Source: a virus (taxonomy: Duplodnaviria; Heunggongvirae; Uroviricota; Caudoviricetes). From it: DNA of 13,592 nucleotides. Position 1 is the stretch's first letter, and each line of letters starts with the position of its first letter. This document shows positions 2,641-11,882 of this stretch, piece by piece. The notes beneath the pieces are model-generated. The model was not told the DNA's origin. It did no database searches and saw only the letters and a program-made list of their open reading frames with translations. The position numbers were made by a program, and so were the translations under genes. The DNA lies in the IMG/VR virus record IMGVR_UViG_2778261231_000014, positions 1 through 13,592 of that record; one strand, written 5' to 3'.

Positions 2641-2676
2641 GCCTTTGAAGTTACCGCTTCAAGGGCTTTTTCTTTT
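2641..2676 (+). terminator. Rho-independent terminator on the + strand, in the gap between the O-like and YdaT-like genes
   Basis: 10-bp stem GCCTTTGAAG / CTTCAAGGGC (one G-U pair), 6-nt loop, then TTTTTCTTTT. The U-tract is 3' only on the + strand, opposite to the local genes. Confidence 0.6.
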
Positions 2677-2686
2677 CTTGTGCCTC

Positions 2687-3229
2687 TCATATAACCCCCA
2701 ACATTGACGTGACCATCGTCATCAGCGGCCCTACCTGCTCCGGCATGAGGCGGAACAGCGACGCTATACCCTCGCTTACCTCTTTCAGCTTCTGATGCTC
2801 TGGAGCGCCCAGAAGCACTGCCTGCTTAGCTTCGGCACACTCTTTCATCGCGGATGCGATCAGCGACATCGTGTCGTTCTGTGGTGCAAGGCGGTTGCGA
2901 AATTCCAGTGGAAGTACCGCCATGATTGCGGGCGTCAGCTGGCGCACGTTCTCGCGGTACTGCTCAGAGTCGAAACGGTTATCCAGAAAGCGAAAAAGTT
3001 TCTGGCGCGCCCTGCTGATGTCTTCCGGGAAGCTGATGGCGGTACCGCCCTGCTCCCGGTATTCGTTGATGATCAGTGCCGAAACGACGTCCTGATTGTC
3101 CAGCGCCGAAGACCATGCCCGGACCGCATCGCGGATCTTTTCGTGGTCTGGCGCCGCCTTAGGTTGAGCGCGGTTTATCATCGCTCCCGGGTGTATTCCG
3201 GTATTGTGTTGATACGCAAGTGAATGCAT
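2687..3229 (-). CDS. YdaT-like regulatory protein (CII-position analog of Rac-type prophages)
   Basis: Sits immediately downstream of the cro-like gene. Motifs EYREQGG and LTPAIMAVLPLEFRNRL resemble Rac YdaT as I recall it. Start could be ATG 3229 or internal ATG 3181. Confidence 0.6.
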   Translation of the reverse strand: MHSLAYQHNTGIHPGAMINRAQPKAAPDHEKIRDAVRAWSSALDNQDVVSALIINEYREQGGTAISFPEDISRARQKLFRFLDNRFDSEQYRENVRQLTPAIMAVLPLEFRNRLAPQNDTMSLIASAMKECAEAKQAVLLGAPEHQKLKEVSEGIASLFRLMPEQVGPLMTMVTSMLGVI

Positions 3230-4457: not shown

Positions 4458-5219
4458 ATGACACAGTTTCAACTTGCATTAATCGCCAGAGAAGTTGATG
4501 GAGAAGTCATCCATCTTCGCACCAAAGACGGTTACATCAATGCCACCGCAATGTGCAAGTCTGCTGGGAAGCTACTTGCTGACTATACACGACTAAAAAC
4601 AACGCAAGATTTTTTTGATGAATTATCCCGCGATATGGGGATTCCCATATCGGAATTAATTCAATCATTTAAAGGCGGAAGAGCAGAGAATCAAGGGACT
4701 TGGGTTCATCCAGACATCGCAATTAACTTAGCTCAGTGGCTATCTCCAAAATTTGCAGTGCAAGTATCGAGATGGGTGCGTGAGTGGATGTCAGGCGAAA
4801 GAGCGCCTGCCGAACTCCCTATCCACCTTAAGCGGTATATGACAAACCGAGGCAGGGTTCCTCATACGCACTTTTCTATGCTTAATGAACTGACGTTTAA
4901 CCTGGTTGCGCCACTTGAGCAGGCAGGATATACGCTGCCAGAAAAAATGGTCCCTGATATTTCAGAAGGTAGGGTTTTCTCGCAATGGCTTCGTGAAAAC
5001 CGGGGTGTTGAGCCGAAGACGTTCCCAACATATAACCATGAGTACCCAGATGGCCGGACATTCCCGGTACGTCTATACCCAAACGAATATCTTGCAGATT
5101 TCAAACAACACTTCAACGAAGTGTGGCTGCCTCAGTACGCTCCTAAATATTTTGCAGAACGAGACCAAAGGGCATTGACGTTGATTGAGAAAATCATGTT
5201 GCCTGACCTTGATTCCTAA
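4458..5219 (+). CDS. KilA-N domain protein (253 aa) with an unassigned C-terminal domain
   Basis: N-terminal approximately 100 aa (INATAMCKSAGKLLADYTRLKTTQDFF...VHPDIAINLAQWLSPKFAVQVSRWV) fit the KilA-N/APSES-like fold. AGGA RBS; lower GC than the flanks. Confidence 0.65.
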   Translation: MTQFQLALIAREVDGEVIHLRTKDGYINATAMCKSAGKLLADYTRLKTTQDFFDELSRDMGIPISELIQSFKGGRAENQGTWVHPDIAINLAQWLSPKFAVQVSRWVREWMSGERAPAELPIHLKRYMTNRGRVPHTHFSMLNELTFNLVAPLEQAGYTLPEKMVPDISEGRVFSQWLRENRGVEPKTFPTYNHEYPDGRTFPVRLYPNEYLADFKQHFNEVWLPQYAPKYFAERDQRALTLIEKIMLPDLDS

Positions 5220-5227
5220 ATGTTATA

Positions 5228-5250
5228 CCCGGCCACCAAGCCGGGGTTTT
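5228..5250 (+). terminator. Putative intrinsic terminator after the KilA-N gene
   Basis: Stem CCCGGC / GCCGGG, loop CACCAA, followed by GTTTT. Sits between the convergent KilA-N and 65-aa genes. Confidence 0.4.
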
Positions 5251-5446
5251 ACTGCCCTTTCCGCACTATCTCAGCTGCATCCCTGTTCACACCCTTACCT
5301 ATCACGTTTCCCGTTTCCTTCCGGTACCGTTCCAGCTTGTCGATGATGTTTTGCTGGGTCATAGGTAAATCTGCCAGTGACAACTCCATGACCGCCCGCC
5401 CCATGGCGTGAACCATCATGTTCACTCTTTCTTCATCCAAGCCCAT
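5249..5446 (-). CDS. Small hypothetical protein (65 aa), divergent from the early-left promoter
   Basis: AAGGAG RBS 8 nt upstream of ATG 5446-5444; possible extended -10 TGATATGCT on the - strand upstream. No family recognised with confidence. Confidence 0.55.
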   Translation of the reverse strand: MGLDEERVNMMVHAMGRAVMELSLADLPMTQQNIIDKLERYRKETGNVIGKGVNRDAAEIVRKGQ

Positions 5447-5501
5447 TACCCACTCCTTTTTGATGTTTTTTTCAGCATATCACTTATGCCACCAAAAAAT
5501 A

Positions 5502-5576
5502 AATCAACATAAAAATCAACAAGAAACGATTAAATCAACAAAATAAATCCACAAGGTGTTGACCTATAAATCCACA
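5502..5576. promoter_or_regulatory. Second operator-like cluster (OL-like): five direct copies of AATC(A/C)ACA
   Basis: AATCAACA at 5502, 5514, 5533; AATCCACA at 5546, 5569. Same motif family as the cI/cro intergenic region; the last copy lies between the -35 and -10 of the rightward promoter. Confidence 0.55.
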
Positions 5577-5587
5577 TGATGTTTAAT
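5559..5587 (+). promoter_or_regulatory. Putative early-left (pL-like) sigma70 promoter: TTGACC-17-TTTAAT
   Basis: TTGACC at 5559-5564, TTTAAT at 5582-5587, 17-bp spacer containing AAATCCACATGATG. Points toward the recombination-gene operon. Confidence 0.45.
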
Positions 5588-5633
5588 TATCCCATCGAAA
5601 CGAAACATCGACAGCTGAGCGAAGTTAGCCAGC

Positions 5634-5664
5634 GGCGGACAGCAAGTCGCCTGCTTTTTAACAA
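5634..5664 (+). promoter_or_regulatory. nut-like site in the leader: bulged hairpin followed by a boxA-like TGCTTTTTAACAA (alternatively a leader intrinsic terminator)
   Basis: Hairpin GGCG(G)AC-AGCAA-GTCGCC at 5634-5651, then TGCTTTTTAACAA at 5652-5664, which is one mismatch from the rrn boxA core TGCTCTTTAACAA as I recall it. Confidence 0.35.
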
Positions 5665-6003
5665 CATGCAGATTTACAGCGTCAATGACCTGTTAAGACC
5701 CCTACACGTAAACGTGCTGTATCACCGGGTGCGATCCGGTCGGTGAGAGAGTATCCCCGCGCGAGAGCGAGAACGGCGTGAGAACGGGCAACACTGGCAG
5801 GGAGTTGGCGCTGACCAATACAGGGAATGTTATGGGATGTGGTGAAGGGTTCATGGACGGGAATATGTCGCACGTAAAGCGGCGAGGCCCGAGGAGCTAT
5901 TGCCGAAGATAAGTAGGCCGAATCGGGTCGAAATGGGTCTCCCACCTACCACATCGCCAAAGCATTTCTCCCGCATCAGCGGGTAACGACAGAGGGTAAG
6001 GGG

Positions 6004-6300
6004 ATGATCGACGACATCAAGCGCATCGACTCAATGATAAATGCGCTTCGCAATATGAAACAGGACATCAAGCGTCAGCAGAAACTAAGTGAAATAAACA
6101 GTTTAGACCTGTCGCCGAAGCAAGCTCAAAAGCGCAATGCCGATGCTGACTGGATTGCGATGGAACAGATTAAGCGTCGGCATGAGCTGCACGCTCTGTC
6201 TGTTGAGCTTGGGTTCGCTGAGCGCCGGGAAAGTTATGCTCCATTTGAATTAACTGACGGGTGGCACCGATTCGACCACAAGCCGCGCGAACCTCAATAG
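6004..6300 (+). CDS. Hypothetical early protein (98 aa), first gene of the rightward early operon
   Basis: RBS AGGGTAAGGGG before ATG 6004; followed immediately by an intrinsic terminator. No family recognised. Confidence 0.55.
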   Translation: MIDDIKRIDSMINALRNMKQDIKRQQKLSEINSLDLSPKQAQKRNADADWIAMEQIKRRHELHALSVELGFAERRESYAPFELTDGWHRFDHKPREPQ

Positions 6301-6321
6301 CCGCCTAACCAGCGGCTTTTT
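6299..6321 (+). terminator. Rho-independent terminator after the first early gene
   Basis: Stem AGCCGC / GCGGCT, 7-nt loop, then TTTTT; overlaps the TAG stop at 6298-6300. Confidence 0.6.
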
Positions 6322-6456
6322 CATACCTGGAGTCATTTACGAGTGGCTCAAGTTATGACAACCGGCGGCCATCCACCGCCCATTGAAACACTGAATAAAT
6401 GCGTTGAAGTCTTGTATTAACCGTTCCGTTCGCCGCGATAAGGCCAAGAGGAAATC

Positions 6457-6663
6457 ATGGTAAACCAGCACTACGGTACACAGACAGTAAACCGCGGCGC
6501 AGTTCAGCCGGGGATGCTCGTCAAACACAAGGATTCAACCTGGACGGCATCAGCTAATGCTCGTGGTCGTTTGTATCTGCATCGCGGCGTTGAGATGACT
6601 TACACCAGGGATTTGCTGGTTGAAGTTTATCTGAACGGTCTGGGGAATGGCCTCAGCCATTAA
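6457..6663 (+). CDS. Hypothetical small protein (68 aa)
   Basis: AAGAGG RBS 5 nt upstream of ATG 6457; same orientation as the operon. The overlapping - strand ORF 6337..6528 starts with GTG and has no RBS. Confidence 0.5.
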   Translation: MVNQHYGTQTVNRGAVQPGMLVKHKDSTWTASANARGRLYLHRGVEMTYTRDLLVEVYLNGLGNGLSH

Positions 6664-6696
6664 CGGAGAGTTGCCAAAACACTTTAAGGACAGGTG

Positions 6697-6855
6697 ATGA
6701 AAAAAGAATGTGGTTATTGCCACAAGCCTGTTGAAGAAGGCGCAGAAGTAAAGAGCACCTTGCTCTATCTCAACGGTTCGCAACTGGCACAGAAAGAAAA
6801 AGAATATTGCTCTAAGCAATGCGCTGAATACGACCAGATGGCGCACGAAAGTTAA
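6697..6855 (+). CDS. Small Cys4 protein (52 aa), putative zinc-ribbon; absent from the ORF track because it is under 60 aa
   Basis: Translation MKKECGYCHKPVEEGAEVKSTLLYLNGSQLAQKEKEYCSKQCAEYDQMAHES has CxxC...CxxxC. By position it matches the small zinc-binding gene of Rac-type prophages (ydaE position). Confidence 0.45.
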   Translation: MKKECGYCHKPVEEGAEVKSTLLYLNGSQLAQKEKEYCSKQCAEYDQMAHES

Positions 6856-6940
6856 ATAGCAGTCCTGAAATATGAAATGAAAAATTCGCCATTAATTTGG
6901 CGCGGCTTCTTACACCCTTAATTTAACAACTGGAGATTTT

Positions 6941-7228
6941 ATGGAAATCGTAAAAATCGAAATGAACCTGAAAGCAGTGAATAAAGAAGTGGCTGCATTC
7001 AACTGCGAGAAGAAAGTATCAGGCGTTATTCACTCAACTACAAACGGTGAAACAACAGTCATTCTCGACGGTGGCTATGTGCTTGGCAAGTTTGATTGCC
7101 CGCACTGCGCCATTGAGGAGATCAGCTTGCTGGTACTCAAAATCAGCGATAGCGATTACGCCGGCTGGGGAACCTACCGTACATACAAGCAAGATTTTAT
7201 GAATGAGGCGATCGTAGCCGTCAGTTAA
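6941..7228 (+). CDS. Hypothetical protein (95 aa) immediately upstream of the recE-like gene (racC position)
   Basis: GGAG RBS 5 nt upstream of ATG 6941; a hairpin GCCCAC-CGAA-GTGGGC without a U-tract follows at 7235-7250. Confidence 0.55.
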   Translation: MEIVKIEMNLKAVNKEVAAFNCEKKVSGVIHSTTNGETTVILDGGYVLGKFDCPHCAIEEISLLVLKISDSDYAGWGTYRTYKQDFMNEAIVAVS

Positions 7229-7368
7229 GCGAAAGCCCACCGAAGTGGGCCCGCCATGTCCGGCCTCACCGACCAAAGTTACACCGGAAACAACATTAAA
7301 ACCAAAGTTAACCCAATGGGCGCTATCAATGGTCCGGGGATTCTAACACCCAAAAATGAGGATCTCAC

Positions 7369-10300
7369 ATGGAATTCTTTAATGTGGTTAAAGCCACTCA
7401 GAAATCCGGAAAGCAAGATGCAGTGGTCTGGTTCACTGCTAAAACCGAGGCTCGCGCCAATCTGATGCTGGATGTTGCGCTGGAAGATGCAGGTATCGAA
7501 ACAGGTCGGGGTAAGGACTACGCCAAACCGATTCGCACTGATTTCCCAGTTGTCGACGGCCTGCCGAAAGAAGGTGAAGTTGATTTTACCTGGTGTGATC
7601 GCTACGAGCTTCAGGACGATGGGCGCACCTGGCTGCCAAAAGCCGCTGGTGTGTCTACTGGTTCCGTTGACGCCCCCTACACACCTACTCCGACCGTAAT
7701 CGTTGAAGATGCGACTGCGTCCGAAATTGTCCCGGTTGAAAACCGTACTCCAGCGGTCCGCTTTGCCGTCCATCTGATGAACGATAAATACCAAACCCAC
7801 GTCACTAAAGAGCAGCAGTTGGCTGCCAGCGAAATGTCACTGGATGAAGGCAATACATATCTCCATAGCCTGCTTGTGGCAAGGAACGATGTGCCCGCGA
7901 CCGCCAAACTCAGCCTGAATGCTGAGTGGAAAATGATTCGGGCGGTTAAGGACATTTTCACACCCGACGAAGAGCACGAACCAAGATTGATCGCTGCATT
8001 CATGTCTGACTGGGTGAACACCGATGCCGGTGACCGCAATCAACTGGTAGAAGACTGGCGCAGTGGTAAGTTGCAGTTGCTCAAAACTGAAACCAGCAAC
8101 GCTGCTGACGTTACAACGGGTCAAGATCTCACTGTTGAGGACGGTATCCAGACCGACGAGAACGGCCGGGCAGAAGGTGGCGTCGTTGATGGTGAAGTCG
8201 ATACCGAAGAGCAATCCCAGCAGACACAGCAACCGAACCTGATCGTTGTTGCCACCCTGCCATTCCGCCAGCGCGTACTGGCTCAGTTCATCGGTGATGG
8301 TGAATATCTCTATCACATCGACGCAGGGCAGAAAAATGAGATTGTCCGCCTTGAGATGGACACCGATGACGCGTACGTCCAGAACCTGCTGCTGGCAGCT
8401 GAGAATGTGGAAGCATTCAAAAAAGCCATTGAGCACGATATTCATAAAGTCGTGAATGCCGTTAAGAAAGTCTTCCCTGTCGATGGAAAAATCCCTGAAC
8501 TCGCAACCTTAATCCAGTTTTTGAAATTGTGGTTCGCTACAGATCACATCGACCGCGGTATCCTCGTTCGCGAATGGGCCGCCGGTAATCGCATCAGTAG
8601 TGTGCAGCGTACTGATTCCGGCACTAATGCCGACGGCGGTTACGTCACTGACCGTGGACCTGACGCACACCACACACTGGACACTCTCGATTTAGAGATT
8701 GCGTGTGCCCTTCTGCCTATGGACTTCAACCACTTCGAGATCCCGGGCAGCATTCTTCGTCGCGCTAAAGAAATCGTGACCAAAAAAGAAGAACCATGGA
8801 AATCATGGAGCAACATCCTGCGCAATCAGCCAGGCGTTCTGGGTGTTAACCGCACGGCTATTTTTAACCTGGTACGTATCGCACCGGAAAATATTCATTT
8901 AACTCCTGTCGCTCACCTGGAATTTGTTAACCAGACCATGACAGCCGCGTTCAATTCCGCGGTCGAGTTATTGCCGTTGCATGAGGCTGAACCCGCAGCA
9001 CAGGAAATTCCCCAACCTGAAGGTAAGGAGTCTCCGCGCAAATCCTTCTGCACTCACGAAGAGAACCTGCAACGCGTGCGTGAAGAAGGAGCACGCCGCC
9101 GCGCAGAGGAAGCGGCAGCACAACCGCAGAAAGTCGAACAAGAACTGGTTAAAAATGTCGGCAACGGAATATTCGACGTTACGGCTTTGCTGCAGAACTC
9201 AGCAACTCATGGCACGAAAAAGGCTACGGAGACCACCAGCAATGTGCAGGTTCAAGAAACTGTCAGTGATGAAAAACAAGCTGGTGATGAAGTACAGCCA
9301 GGCGAAAGCAGTCTGGAGTCTGGTGAAGAGTCAGATACCAGCCAGAAGGACGATGTAAACCAGAATACGGATTCTGTCGCCAAAAATAGCGATTCTGTAA
9401 GCCAAACCGAACCAGTTGCAGCACAAACCGAGCCAGAAGCGCAATCTGACGAACCGGCTGTTGTTTATCCCGCTTATTTCGAGCCAGGCCGCTATGAAGG
9501 GCTGCCAAACGAGGTTTACCACGCCGCCAACGGCATCAGCTCAACCCAGGTGAAAGATGCGCGCGTTTCGCTGATGTACTTCAATGCGCGCCACGTAGAG
9601 AAAACCATCGTCAAAGAGCGCTCAGCGGTGCTGGACATGGGCAACTTGGTGCATGCGCTGGCGTTGCAGCCTGAACTACTGGACGCAGAATTCAGCGTTG
9701 AACCGGTGATCCCTGAAGGCGCATTCACAACGGCCGCGACCCTGCGCGCCTTTATCGATGAGCACAATGCCAGCCTGCCGGCGCTGCTGTCTGCCGACGA
9801 CATCAAGGTGTTACTGGAAGAGTACAACGCCACCCTGCCGCCGCAGGTTCCGCTTGGCGCTAACCTGGAAGAAACGGCACAGAACTATATGGCGCTGCCA
9901 GCTGACTTCCAGCGTATTGATGGTGACCAGAAGCAGACGGCGACGGCAATGAAGGCATGCATTAAAGAGTACAACGCCACCCTGCCGCCGCCGGTTAAAA
10001 CCAGCGGCAGCCGTGACGCGCTGCTGGAGCAGTTGGCAATCATCAACCCTGACCTTGTGGCTCAGGAAGCACAGAAACCGGCACCACTGAAAGTGTCCGG
10101 TACCAAAGCAGACATGATCCAGGCCGTGAAGGCAGTCAAACCAGATGCCGTATTTGCCGACGAACTGCTGGATGCCTGGCGCGATAACCCGGAAGGAAAA
10201 GTGCTGGTCACCCGCCAGCAGCTGAGCACCGCGCTGAATATTCAAAAAGCGCTTCTGGCACACCCGACCGCCGGCATGCTGCTGACCCACCCTAGCCGAG

Positions 10301-10758
10301 CCGTTGAGGTGAGCTACTTTGGTTTTGACGAGGAGACGGGCTTGGAAGTTCGTGTGCGCCCTGACCTTGAGATCGACCTGGATGGCGTGCGTATAGGTGC
10401 AGACCTGAAAACCATCAGCATGTGGAATGTTAAGCAGGAAAGCCTGCGCGCCAGGCTACACCGGGAAATTATTGAACGTGATTATCACCTGAGCGCGGCT
10501 ATGTACTGCGAAACCGCAGCGCTGGATCAGTTCTTCTGGATTTTCGTCAACAAAGACGAGAACTACCACTGGATCGCCATCATCGAGGCATCCGCTGAAC
10601 TACTGGAGCTGGGTATGCTCGAGTACCGCAAAGCGATGCGCAATATCGCAACCGGATTCGACACAGGTGAATGGCCAGCGCCAATCACTGCTGACTACAC
10701 CGACGAACTGAACGACTTCGACCTGCGCCGCCTTGAAGCGCTGCGTACTCAGGCATAA
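7369..10758 (+). CDS. recE: RecE-like exonuclease VIII (1129 aa): long N-terminal region, acidic linker, C-terminal PD-(D/E)XK nuclease domain
   Basis: Single long ORF with GAGGA RBS. C-terminal RVRPDLEIDLDGVRIGADLKT fits a PD...(D/E)xK signature; N-terminal DFPVVDGLPKEGEVDFTW resembles what I recall of RecE. Directly followed by an annealing-protein gene. Confidence 0.7.
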   Translation: MEFFNVVKATQKSGKQDAVVWFTAKTEARANLMLDVALEDAGIETGRGKDYAKPIRTDFPVVDGLPKEGEVDFTWCDRYELQDDGRTWLPKAAGVSTGSVDAPYTPTPTVIVEDATASEIVPVENRTPAVRFAVHLMNDKYQTHVTKEQQLAASEMSLDEGNTYLHSLLVARNDVPATAKLSLNAEWKMIRAVKDIFTPDEEHEPRLIAAFMSDWVNTDAGDRNQLVEDWRSGKLQLLKTETSNAADVTTGQDLTVEDGIQTDENGRAEGGVVDGEVDTEEQSQQTQQPNLIVVATLPFRQRVLAQFIGDGEYLYHIDAGQKNEIVRLEMDTDDAYVQNLLLAAENVEAFKKAIEHDIHKVVNAVKKVFPVDGKIPELATLIQFLKLWFATDHIDRGILVREWAAGNRISSVQRTDSGTNADGGYVTDRGPDAHHTLDTLDLEIACALLPMDFNHFEIPGSILRRAKEIVTKKEEPWKSWSNILRNQPGVLGVNRTAIFNLVRIAPENIHLTPVAHLEFVNQTMTAAFNSAVELLPLHEAEPAAQEIPQPEGKESPRKSFCTHEENLQRVREEGARRRAEEAAAQPQKVEQELVKNVGNGIFDVTALLQNSATHGTKKATETTSNVQVQETVSDEKQAGDEVQPGESSLESGEESDTSQKDDVNQNTDSVAKNSDSVSQTEPVAAQTEPEAQSDEPAVVYPAYFEPGRYEGLPNEVYHAANGISSTQVKDARVSLMYFNARHVEKTIVKERSAVLDMGNLVHALALQPELLDAEFSVEPVIPEGAFTTAATLRAFIDEHNASLPALLSADDIKVLLEEYNATLPPQVPLGANLEETAQNYMALPADFQRIDGDQKQTATAMKACIKEYNATLPPPVKTSGSRDALLEQLAIINPDLVAQEAQKPAPLKVSGTKADMIQAVKAVKPDAVFADELLDAWRDNPEGKVLVTRQQLSTALNIQKALLAHPTAGMLLTHPSRAVEVSYFGFDEETGLEVRVRPDLEIDLDGVRIGADLKTISMWNVKQESLRARLHREIIERDYHLSAAMYCETAALDQFFWIFVNKDENYHWIAIIEASAELLELGMLEYRKAMRNIATGFDTGEWPAPITADYTDELNDFDLRRLEALRTQA

Positions 10759-10763
10759 GGGGA

Positions 10764-11882
10764 ATGATGATGGAAAACACGAATATCGTAACCGCTGAAC
10801 AGCAGACTCCAAACACGATCTCAGCCAGCAATGCCATTTTCAACGTGCAGGCTTTAACCCAGCTTCAGTCTGTCGCCGGGTTGATGGCACAGGCAGCCGT
10901 AACGGTGCCTGAGCACCTCCGCGGCAATCCGGCAGACTGCATGGCCATCATCATGCAGGCGATGCAGTGGGGTATGAACCCTTACGCCGTGGCGCAAAAG
11001 ACGCACCTGGTTAACGGTGTCCTGGGATACGAAGCGCAACTGGTTAATGCGGTGATCTCCAGCTCAAACGCCATCGTTGGCCGCTTTCACTATGAGTACG
11101 AGGGCGACTGGTCGAAATGTGCCAGCAGCCGCGAGATAACCGTTAAAAAGCCTGCGAAAGGTGGCGGGACGTACGACAAGAAAGAAATGGTACGCGGTTG
11201 GGAAAGTGCTGATGAACAAGGACTGTCGGTACGGGTAGGTGCCGTTATTCGCGGTGAAAGTGATATCACCTGGGGAGAGCCTGTTTTCCTCTCCAGCGTA
11301 ATCACACGTAATTCTCCACTTTGGGTATCAAACCCGAAACAGCAGATCGCTTATCTGGCACTCAAATACTGGGCGCGCCTGTATTGCCCTGCAGTTGTTC
11401 TTGGTGTGTACACCCCTGATGAGATTGAACAGCGCACAGAAAAAGAGATCAACCCAACGCCGCAACGCGTTAGCCTGGCTGATATCTCAGGTGACACCGT
11501 CACAACCACGCAAAGCGCACAGGAATCGTCGGTAAATGTCGACTCTCTTGCCGATGATTTCCGCGAACGCATCGAATCTGCTCAGGACGTGGATAGCGCC
11601 AAATCGCTGCGTGCCGACATTGAAACGGCGAAAGCTACGCTGGGATCCGCACTATTCACCGAGCTGAAAAACAAAGCCGTAAAGCGTTATTACCTAGTGG
11701 ATGCACGCAACAAGGTTGAGGAGGCTATTAAATCCCTGCCCCAGCCCGACGAGCCGCATGCAGCCGAACGGTTCGCTGAAGCCGAGCGCATGCTTGCATC
11801 TTCAAAGCGTCACTTAGGCGATGAACTGCACGATCAATTCAGCATCACCCTGGCGGATATGAAACCGGAATACGTGGCCTGA
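10764..11882 (+). CDS. Single-strand annealing protein, Bet/RecT (Red-beta) superfamily
   Basis: ADCMAIIMQAMQWGMNPYAVAQKTHLV and SPLWVSNPKQQIAYLALKYWARLYCPAVVLGVYTPDE align by eye with lambda Bet. The true start may be the third ATG at 10770, which has better spacing from AAGGGG. Confidence 0.65.
   Translation: MMMENTNIVTAEQQTPNTISASNAIFNVQALTQLQSVAGLMAQAAVTVPEHLRGNPADCMAIIMQAMQWGMNPYAVAQKTHLVNGVLGYEAQLVNAVISSSNAIVGRFHYEYEGDWSKCASSREITVKKPAKGGGTYDKKEMVRGWESADEQGLSVRVGAVIRGESDITWGEPVFLSSVITRNSPLWVSNPKQQIAYLALKYWARLYCPAVVLGVYTPDEIEQRTEKEINPTPQRVSLADISGDTVTTTQSAQESSVNVDSLADDFRERIESAQDVDSAKSLRADIETAKATLGSALFTELKNKAVKRYYLVDARNKVEEAIKSLPQPDEPHAAERFAEAERMLASSKRHLGDELHDQFSITLADMKPEYVA

Follow-up and report, generated by a model that had tools for sequence, protein, structure and literature searches.

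The question raised by this locus is whether a phage gene that stands where lambda carries its antiterminator gene N does the same work by the same means. Lambda N is an antiterminator, an intrinsically disordered peptide with an arginine-rich motif that binds boxB RNA. In the window (the whole stretch of 13,592 nucleotides that was analysed) the first-pass annotation had described a 98-aa ORF as the first gene after a pL-like promoter and a nut-like leader, with a terminator directly behind it, and had likened the arrangement to lambda N and tL1. The pL promoter, the boxA and a leader of 409 nt between pL and the gene were all confirmed, the ORF is gene N of coliphage phi80, and the analogy to lambda is also that of the phi80 records, which annotate a gene N, a nutL site (boxA and core), tL1A and tL1B. 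The best explanation for the locus is that it represents the immediate-early leftward unit of a lambdoid prophage of phi80 immunity, with the following features.

5502-5521, 5546-5564 and 5569-5587, + strand: oL operators, from the phi80 JX871397 annotation
5559-5564 and 5582-5587, + strand: pL promoter, -35 box TTGACC and -10 box TTTAAT, from the phi80 JX871397 annotation
5645-5804, + strand: structured leader RNA, phi80 'nutL', 186.9 bits with the covariance model, inside the nutL feature of M11919
5652-5664, + strand: boxA TGCTTTTTAACAA, annotated (phi80 'nutL boxA' is window 5652-5660), one mismatch to the rrn boxA consensus
5705-5716, + strand: hairpin P2, CACG-UAAA-CGUG, annotated as 'nutL core'
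5722-5746, + strand: hairpin P3, from the fold of the leader RNA
about 5755-5790, + strand: GAGA-capped hairpin region, from the fold of the leader RNA
5833-5962, + strand: 3' leader segment with boxC-like GGGAUGUGGUG, 91% shared with N leaders of other phages
5970-5983, + strand: pre-gene hairpin CCCGC-AUCA-GCGGG, from the sequence
5992-5996, + strand: Shine-Dalgarno GAGGG, from the sequence, 7 nt before the ATG
6004-6300, + strand: gene N of phi80 type, ATG start, 98 aa (phi80 identity, PF26859, PHROG 25091)
6298-6300, + strand: stop codon TAG of N, from the sequence
6299-6321, + strand: intrinsic terminator tL1A, from the fold, the T-run and the phi80 annotation
6457-6663, + strand: kil, the first gene past the terminator (PHROG 294 Kil, HK225 annotation)
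7369-10758, + strand: RecE (HK225 annotation)
10764-11882, + strand: RecT (HK225 annotation)

Searching both strands of the window gave no boxA-like site besides that at 5652-5664. A hidden arginine-rich N gene within the leader was considered and rejected, the only leader ORFs being one of 44 aa and one of 56 aa, the longer of which overlaps the -10 box, and tblastn with twelve N proteins giving no match. Across the window and the 13 kb of phi80 examined, tblastn detected no arginine-rich N homolog.

Positions 5248-6452 of the window are 99% identical to phi80 DNA by megablast, and the protein encoded at 6004-6300 is 100% identical to the phi80 gene N product over 98 aa (AFV29181, AAA32296). 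Promoter, operators, boxA, leader, gene and terminator are all the same as in the phi80 records M11919, X13065 and JX871397. The phi80 features were transferred from JX871397, the window coordinate being the coordinate in L001 minus 601. This record labels the ORF gene N, "early transcription antiterminator protein N", and the hairpin behind it tL1A, "rho-independent leftward transcription terminator"; upstream of N it carries three CI operators, pL, 'nutL boxA' and 'nutL core', and it also annotates a second terminator, tL1B, which is rho-dependent. In the 1985 record M11919 the same CDS is the 'N protein', the 'nutL regulatory signal' of 278 bp maps to window 5615-5892, and the 't-L1' region maps to the window-equivalent 6362-6731, i.e. 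downstream of the hairpin at 6299-6317. Judged by sequence identity, the 98-aa gene and its hairpin are therefore the phi80 gene N and tL1A already described and annotated between 1985 and 2012, and finding them rediscovers a gene and a terminator that already have names. That phi80 N acts in trans as an antiterminator is taken from the GenBank annotations of Tanaka and Matsushiro (1985), Ogawa (1988) and Rotman (2012), which presumably go back to experiments of 1985-88. No discussion of phi80 N function was found in the openly available full-text literature.

Differences from phi80 concern the surroundings of this unit. Past 6452 the window continues as HK225-like sequence (kil, RecE/RecT), and with the loss of phi80 sequence from this point the rho-dependent tL1B is absent. 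The cI gene of the window is 91% identical at the DNA level, and a BstA-like gene is found in place of phi80 gene 40A. This gene (4458-5219, + strand), between cI and pL, encodes a 253-aa KilA-N protein that matches models of BstA abortive-infection proteins (PHROG 6287, E = 2e-82; PADLOC BstA, E = 1.6e-20). Window 6314-10400 is 96% identical to HK225, including kil, RecE and RecT. The recombination joint of phi80-like and HK225-like DNA sits at the T-tract of the terminator (window 6314; about 4384 in L003), where HK225 has a terminator with another stem (CCCGCC/GGCGGG) and then shares TTTTTCATACCT and the downstream sequence with the window. The exact arrangement of phi80 N with HK225-type RecET was present in 0 of 5,426 complete E. 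coli genomes, the best match covering 87% of 5248-7400 in two pieces. An antisense match to the Hfq-binding sRNA isrB of Rfam (7230-7327, - strand; 38.2 bits, gathering score 35) lies between the 95-aa ORF and recE, with a promoter-like site at 7368-7340 and a terminator-like hairpin at its end; HK225 has the same match.

The terminator at 6299-6321 had been called clean and strong. The hairpin is real, it is the annotated tL1A, and clean is a fair description: the stem (6299-6304/6312-6317) has 6 bp, five of them G-C, the loop has 7 nt, and TTTT(T)CATA follows, i.e. a G+C-rich hairpin with an immediate U-run as in intrinsic terminators. Its folding energy is -9.6 kcal/mol (z = -4.4), and none of 200 shuffled sequences folded as well. 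As to strength, the U-tract of just 4-5 U predicts a terminator that is moderate rather than strong. The stop codon of N (6298-6300) overlaps the 5' arm of the stem (6299-6304). About 25 contexts of close N homologs preserve this overlap, with an offset of -2, but among more distant homologs the distance from stop codon to terminator is 4-57 nt, and the overlap is therefore not a feature of the family. In 45 of 68 distinct contexts the N homolog has an intrinsic terminator no more than 100 nt past its stop codon.

The ORF at 6004-6300 is a genuine gene by its identity to phi80 N and its wide range of homologs. At E<=0.01 there are 138 homologs of 59-100% identity across the Enterobacterales, with prophage hosts including Escherichia, Citrobacter, Serratia, Klebsiella, Proteus, Xenorhabdus and others. 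A profile HMM search of 1.8 billion proteins yielded 81 clusters, nearly all of about 100 aa; this exhaustive search retrieved small stand-alone relatives only and no informative domain fusions. The family corresponds to Pfam PF26859 (Phage_N_antitermin), for which a precomputed match exists on 120 of 120 listed homologs, and PHROG 25091 matches the 98-aa protein with E = 7e-62; UniProt-derived names of homologs read merely 'Probable regulatory protein', and local searches of Pfam, NCBIfam and PADLOC gave no meaningful match.

The absence of an arginine-rich N-terminus, already remarked in the first-pass annotation, was confirmed. The N-terminus MIDDIKRIDSMINALRNMK has no arginine cluster, the charge of the protein is near neutral, the Pfam models N36 (PF11438) and N_peptide (PF25694) do not match at E<=1, and BLASTP produces no alignment to lambda N at E<=100. 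Lambda N itself and the genes upstream of the homologs in L005, L009, L170 and L175, used as positive controls for the Pfam N models, all match. The C-terminus ELTDGWHRFDHKPREPQ is not a lambda-type RNA-polymerase-binding tail (e.g. ...KGKSIPLI, CLPNV...TAR); such tails occur in upstream neighbours of homologs and are absent from phi80 N itself. The proviso that the protein, if an antiterminator, must be one of a different type agrees with its membership in the stand-alone family PF26859, which is not lambda-type. To our knowledge phi80 N is the only 'N' without an arginine-rich motif.

Positions invariant across genera, in the homologs of 59-100% identity, include H63, W87, H88 and P97, and conservation in the wider family is centred on H63, V67, A72, Y78, G-W-H (86-88) and P..P (94-97). 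AlphaFold2, given a 25-sequence alignment, yields a confident model (pLDDT 88.5) in which two long helices (2-30 and 38-69) run antiparallel and a beta-hairpin (81-92) follows towards the C-terminus; in distinction to the disordered lambda peptide, phi80 N is thus predicted to be an ordered helical hairpin. Foldseek comparison of the model with PDB and BFVD gave nothing below E = 0.26, the matches being generic coiled-coil hairpins which include DksA, DksA2 and Gfh1 without any of these standing out, and a profile search against PDB sequences gave nothing. Secondary-channel factors such as Gre and DksA combine a coiled-coil hairpin with a conserved acidic tip and a globular RNAP-binding domain. 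The predicted antiparallel hairpin of phi80 N, with helices of about 30 residues, resembles their coiled coil, but the residues at its tip are not conserved across the wider family and the fold matches are generic. Of the checks on remote homology and structure that had been proposed, homology leads to PF26859 and the fold searches were uninformative; the predicted helical hairpin with beta-hairpin matches no known antiterminator.

To place the family in its genomic setting, 75 loci encoding N homologs were reduced to 68 distinct contexts and the feature within 1.5 kb upstream of the homolog on the same strand was recorded. A genuine arginine-rich N gene is found in 28 contexts, the phi80-type leader RNA in 17, an HK639-type put-like RNA in 9, and none of these three devices in 16. 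At least one antitermination device is therefore located upstream in 52 of the 68 contexts; 50 of these 52 have just one, and two carry two devices each, the leader element being paired with an arginine-rich N in one. Among the arginine-rich neighbours are MATITVKKSRKPEFLRGASANRRHARRK...CCLPNVAVFSG, proteins with tails like the ...KGKSIPLI of lambda, and matches to Pfam N_peptide above threshold. In L005 (2678-3303), L006 (2708-3303), L009, L170, L175, L197, L198 and others the N homolog is the second gene, right after a lambda- or 933W-type N, and a gap of 2 nt separates the pair in Proteus. In L149, L151 and L154 a protein 100% identical to phi80 N is encoded behind an HK639-type put-like RNA.

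The put-like RNA of these three loci (about 1832-1982) and of L008 (2576-2720) is 84-98% identical to the annotated HK639 putL-like RNA, the proteins downstream being 88-100% identical to phi80 N, and comparison of the HK639 version with that of ESNIH1 reveals compensatory changes in the stem. N homologs are also found outside the pL context, as small genes near the terminase in a Kagunavirus-classified phage and in Vibrio phages. The 52 contexts with a device and the 45 with a terminator, out of 68, strongly tie the family to a promoter-proximal slot that has an antitermination device before it and the first terminator behind it. In most phages the family is not a substitute for an RNA-binding N, and phi80 N differs from lambda N in that its homologs often coexist with a true arginine-rich N gene. 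Since the family usually stands behind an arginine-rich N or an antiterminator RNA, the status of phi80 N as 'the' N analog is in doubt, and it may be a companion of antitermination devices and not their RNA-binding subunit.

The leader RNA is a boxA-linked element of about 150 nt, detected in at least 119 viral contigs by exact-pattern scan (loci L026-L144), with at least 89 distinct versions among the matches listed. It is composed, in this order, of boxA, a variable hairpin, GACCCC, P2, P3, the GAGA-capped hairpin region and GGGCAACACUGGCAG, and contains conserved single-stranded blocks. In an alignment of 20 diverse copies boxA is nearly invariant, and RNAalifold reveals compensatory changes in P2, where one pair is A-U in 12 and G-C in 8 copies and another G-C in 10 and A-U in 7. 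Among 59 distinct copies ten pairs were changed on both sides, compared to 2.6 +/- 0.9 in shuffles and 1-3 in slid controls, in an alignment that was fitted to the covariance model and therefore leans toward structure. The covarying P2 (5705-5716), which is the candidate boxB, lies 40 nt from boxA and inside a larger structured RNA, in distinction to lambda nut.

The covariance model finds one copy of the element per locus, including divergent copies upstream of Xenorhabdus N homologs. Neither the model nor a boxA search detected a second, nutR-like copy of boxA or of the element in the rightward operon of the window or of the phi80 region. A weak partial second match (19.6 bits, E = 0.004) lies upstream of a Xenorhabdus N homolog on the opposite strand (L012 1193-1269, - strand), where a rightward, nutR-like copy would be expected. 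No Rfam family matches the leader at the gathering threshold or at E<=10, which says little, since the HK639 put-like RNA is also missed by Rfam.

Downstream of the element, the 3' leader segment at 5833-5962 is 91% identical to the leader just upstream of the arginine-rich N of HK97, HK106 and 933W-like phages; its counterpart in HK97 is L019 2501-2630, with the N CDS at 2648-3031. A tRNA-like reading of this segment was rejected, ARAGORN having found nothing. Since the segment is common to leaders of HK97/933W-type N genes, the phi80 leader is a mosaic of at least three modules, and since the same 3' leader and junction stand before HK97/933W-like N, phi80 N occupies exactly the N slot. The junction of about 30 nt (5962-5996, GCATTTCTCCCGCATCAGCGGGTAACGACAGAGGG, with hairpin and Shine-Dalgarno) is found again in HK225 and ahead of HK639_44, the genes behind it being unrelated; it may mark a mosaic boundary or act as a signal for processing or translation.

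The distribution of the element is largely separate from that of the protein. A protein of the N family is encoded within 3 kb in just 9 of 128 element loci, and besides these no protein family is common to the neighbourhoods of the element. Copies of 94-95% identity occur in HK225, in KO-TP1 and in about 150 records of Stx phages of the PA2, TL-2011c and O104:H4 types. Neither phi80 N nor an arginine-rich N was found in the 6-8 kb examined of these Stx phages; in the regions examined of HK225 and KO-TP1 the phi80 N protein is absent and no arginine-rich N was detected. Behind the element the Stx phages have an intrinsic terminator, the RNAs isrK and C4 and a gene of Rha type. Phage PA2 (L017 4368-4555) shows an isrK-like match of 58.7 bits and a C4 antisense match of 77.1 bits before a Rha-family gene, an arrangement resembling a P1-type c4/ant module set in a pL operon. 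HK225 has three unrelated small genes between the same element and the same terminator junction; its first genes 041, 040 and 039 were considered as relatives of phi80 N and rejected as unrelated. In Edno5, a phage of Edwardsiella, an arginine-rich N homolog lies about 0.6 kb downstream of the element.

The put RNAs of HK022 and HK639 are cis-acting antiterminator RNAs that work independently of a protein. The phi80 element is like them a conserved structured RNA early in the pL transcript which is found in many phages without an N gene, and the ends of the phi80 leader are common to HK639, whose middle holds the putL-like RNA. It differs in having no alignment similarity to the HK639 putL-like RNA, in which the phi80 covariance model scores only an 8-bit chance match, and in being boxA-linked and single-copy in the regions examined. 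We know of no boxA in put RNAs.

From these data we favour, with a probability of roughly 0.55, the annotated account of an attenuated immediate-early unit, made up of pL, the nutL leader, N and tL1A, in which read-through is promoted by N, phi80 N being like lambda N the first gene of the pL operon, behind a boxA leader and before the first terminator. Unmodified RNA polymerase would mostly halt at tL1A, giving a short N message. As N accumulates, polymerase that has transcribed the nutL leader would become termination-resistant, probably with participation of the host NusB/NusE complex at boxA, and would read through into kil, recE/recT and the integration genes. The lack of an arginine-rich motif, the near-neutral charge and the predicted helical hairpin with its conserved GWH...P..P tail make it most likely that N binds the elongation complex or a host factor, not the boxB loop, and N would work alongside whatever cis-acting device stands upstream. 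The annotated account is supported by the 99% identity to phi80 with its annotated pL, nutL boxA and core, N and tL1A, by the hairpin energy and z-score and by the conserved architecture. Selection on the protein (59-100% identity across genera with invariant positions), its place in exactly the N slot, and the negative tblastn result for an arginine-rich N in the window and the 13 kb of phi80 examined also speak for it. Against it stand the conservation of the nutL RNA in Stx phages, HK225 and KO-TP1 without phi80 N or a detected arginine-rich N, the few element loci with the protein nearby, the phi80-identical N behind put-like RNA in L149, L151 and L154, the arginine-rich N upstream in 28 of 68 contexts, the homologs outside pL, the failure to find a nutR-like copy in the pR operon of the window or of phi80, and the UniProt-derived naming as a 'Probable regulatory protein'.

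The distributions of element and protein fit about as well with a reading in which the leader RNA, i.e. boxA with the element of about 150 nt, is itself the antitermination device, through Nus factors or directly on RNA polymerase like HK022 put, and the 98-aa protein is a separable companion, for example an accessory factor directed at the elongation complex or at Rho, or unrelated to read-through at tL1A. We hold this possible though rather doubtful. It would account for an element that is conserved with covariation, is present as one copy per locus in 119 or more viral contigs and has no protein gene common to its neighbourhoods, and that takes the same slot as an arginine-rich N or a put-like RNA, 50 of 52 device contexts having a single device. 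The leader of PA2-type Stx phages is followed by an intrinsic terminator, and neither kind of N was found in the 8 kb examined there; in HK225 element and terminator junction flank unrelated genes. The phi80 records however name N as the antiterminator and nutL as its site, Edno5 pairs the element with an arginine-rich N, so that the element could be an elaborate nut site, and the element has neither sequence similarity to put RNA nor the rightward second copy found with putL/putR. Put more specifically, and as a tentative proposal, phi80 'N' would be a portable immediate-early companion of three interchangeable devices (arginine-rich N with nut, put-like RNA, phi80-type RNA) and not a nut-recognising antiterminator, the device in phi80, HK225 and the N-less Stx phages (PA2, TL-2011c, O104:H4) being an unclassified boxA-linked RNA that acts without a phage protein.

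The remaining readings dispense with a dedicated antiterminator at this site. Read-through of tL1A could be set mainly by translation, a ribosome ending at the stop codon 6298-6300 close behind the polymerase blocking the hairpin. The overlap of stop codon and stem is visible in the sequence and is kept in the close-homolog contexts; we nevertheless consider this improbable, since distant homologs have their terminators past the stop, the conserved boxA and structured leader are left unexplained, and masking cannot yield the processive read-through needed for a 6-kb operon. The hairpin could also terminate only weakly and leakily, or be chiefly a mosaic junction and a stabiliser of the mRNA 3' end, with the downstream genes expressed without antitermination. 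The short stem and U-tract, the tL1 feature of M11919 that maps downstream of the hairpin, the rho-dependent tL1B of Rotman in phi80 sequence that is missing from the window after 6452, and the HK225 recombination joint at the T-tract all point this way. We give it very little credence, because a terminator recurs at this place with another stem in HK225 and in 45 of 68 homolog contexts, the z-score is -4.4, and phi80 has the terminator annotated.

The identification of gene and terminator alone adds nothing beyond the annotation of 1985-2012. The comparative data raise the question of the binding partner of phi80 N, and they draw attention to the leader RNA, which, if it is a self-sufficient antiterminator, would be one common to roughly 150 Stx-phage records without N in the regions examined. 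Whether this boxA-linked leader is self-sufficient thus matters for understanding early gene activation in Stx phages, a clinically important group.
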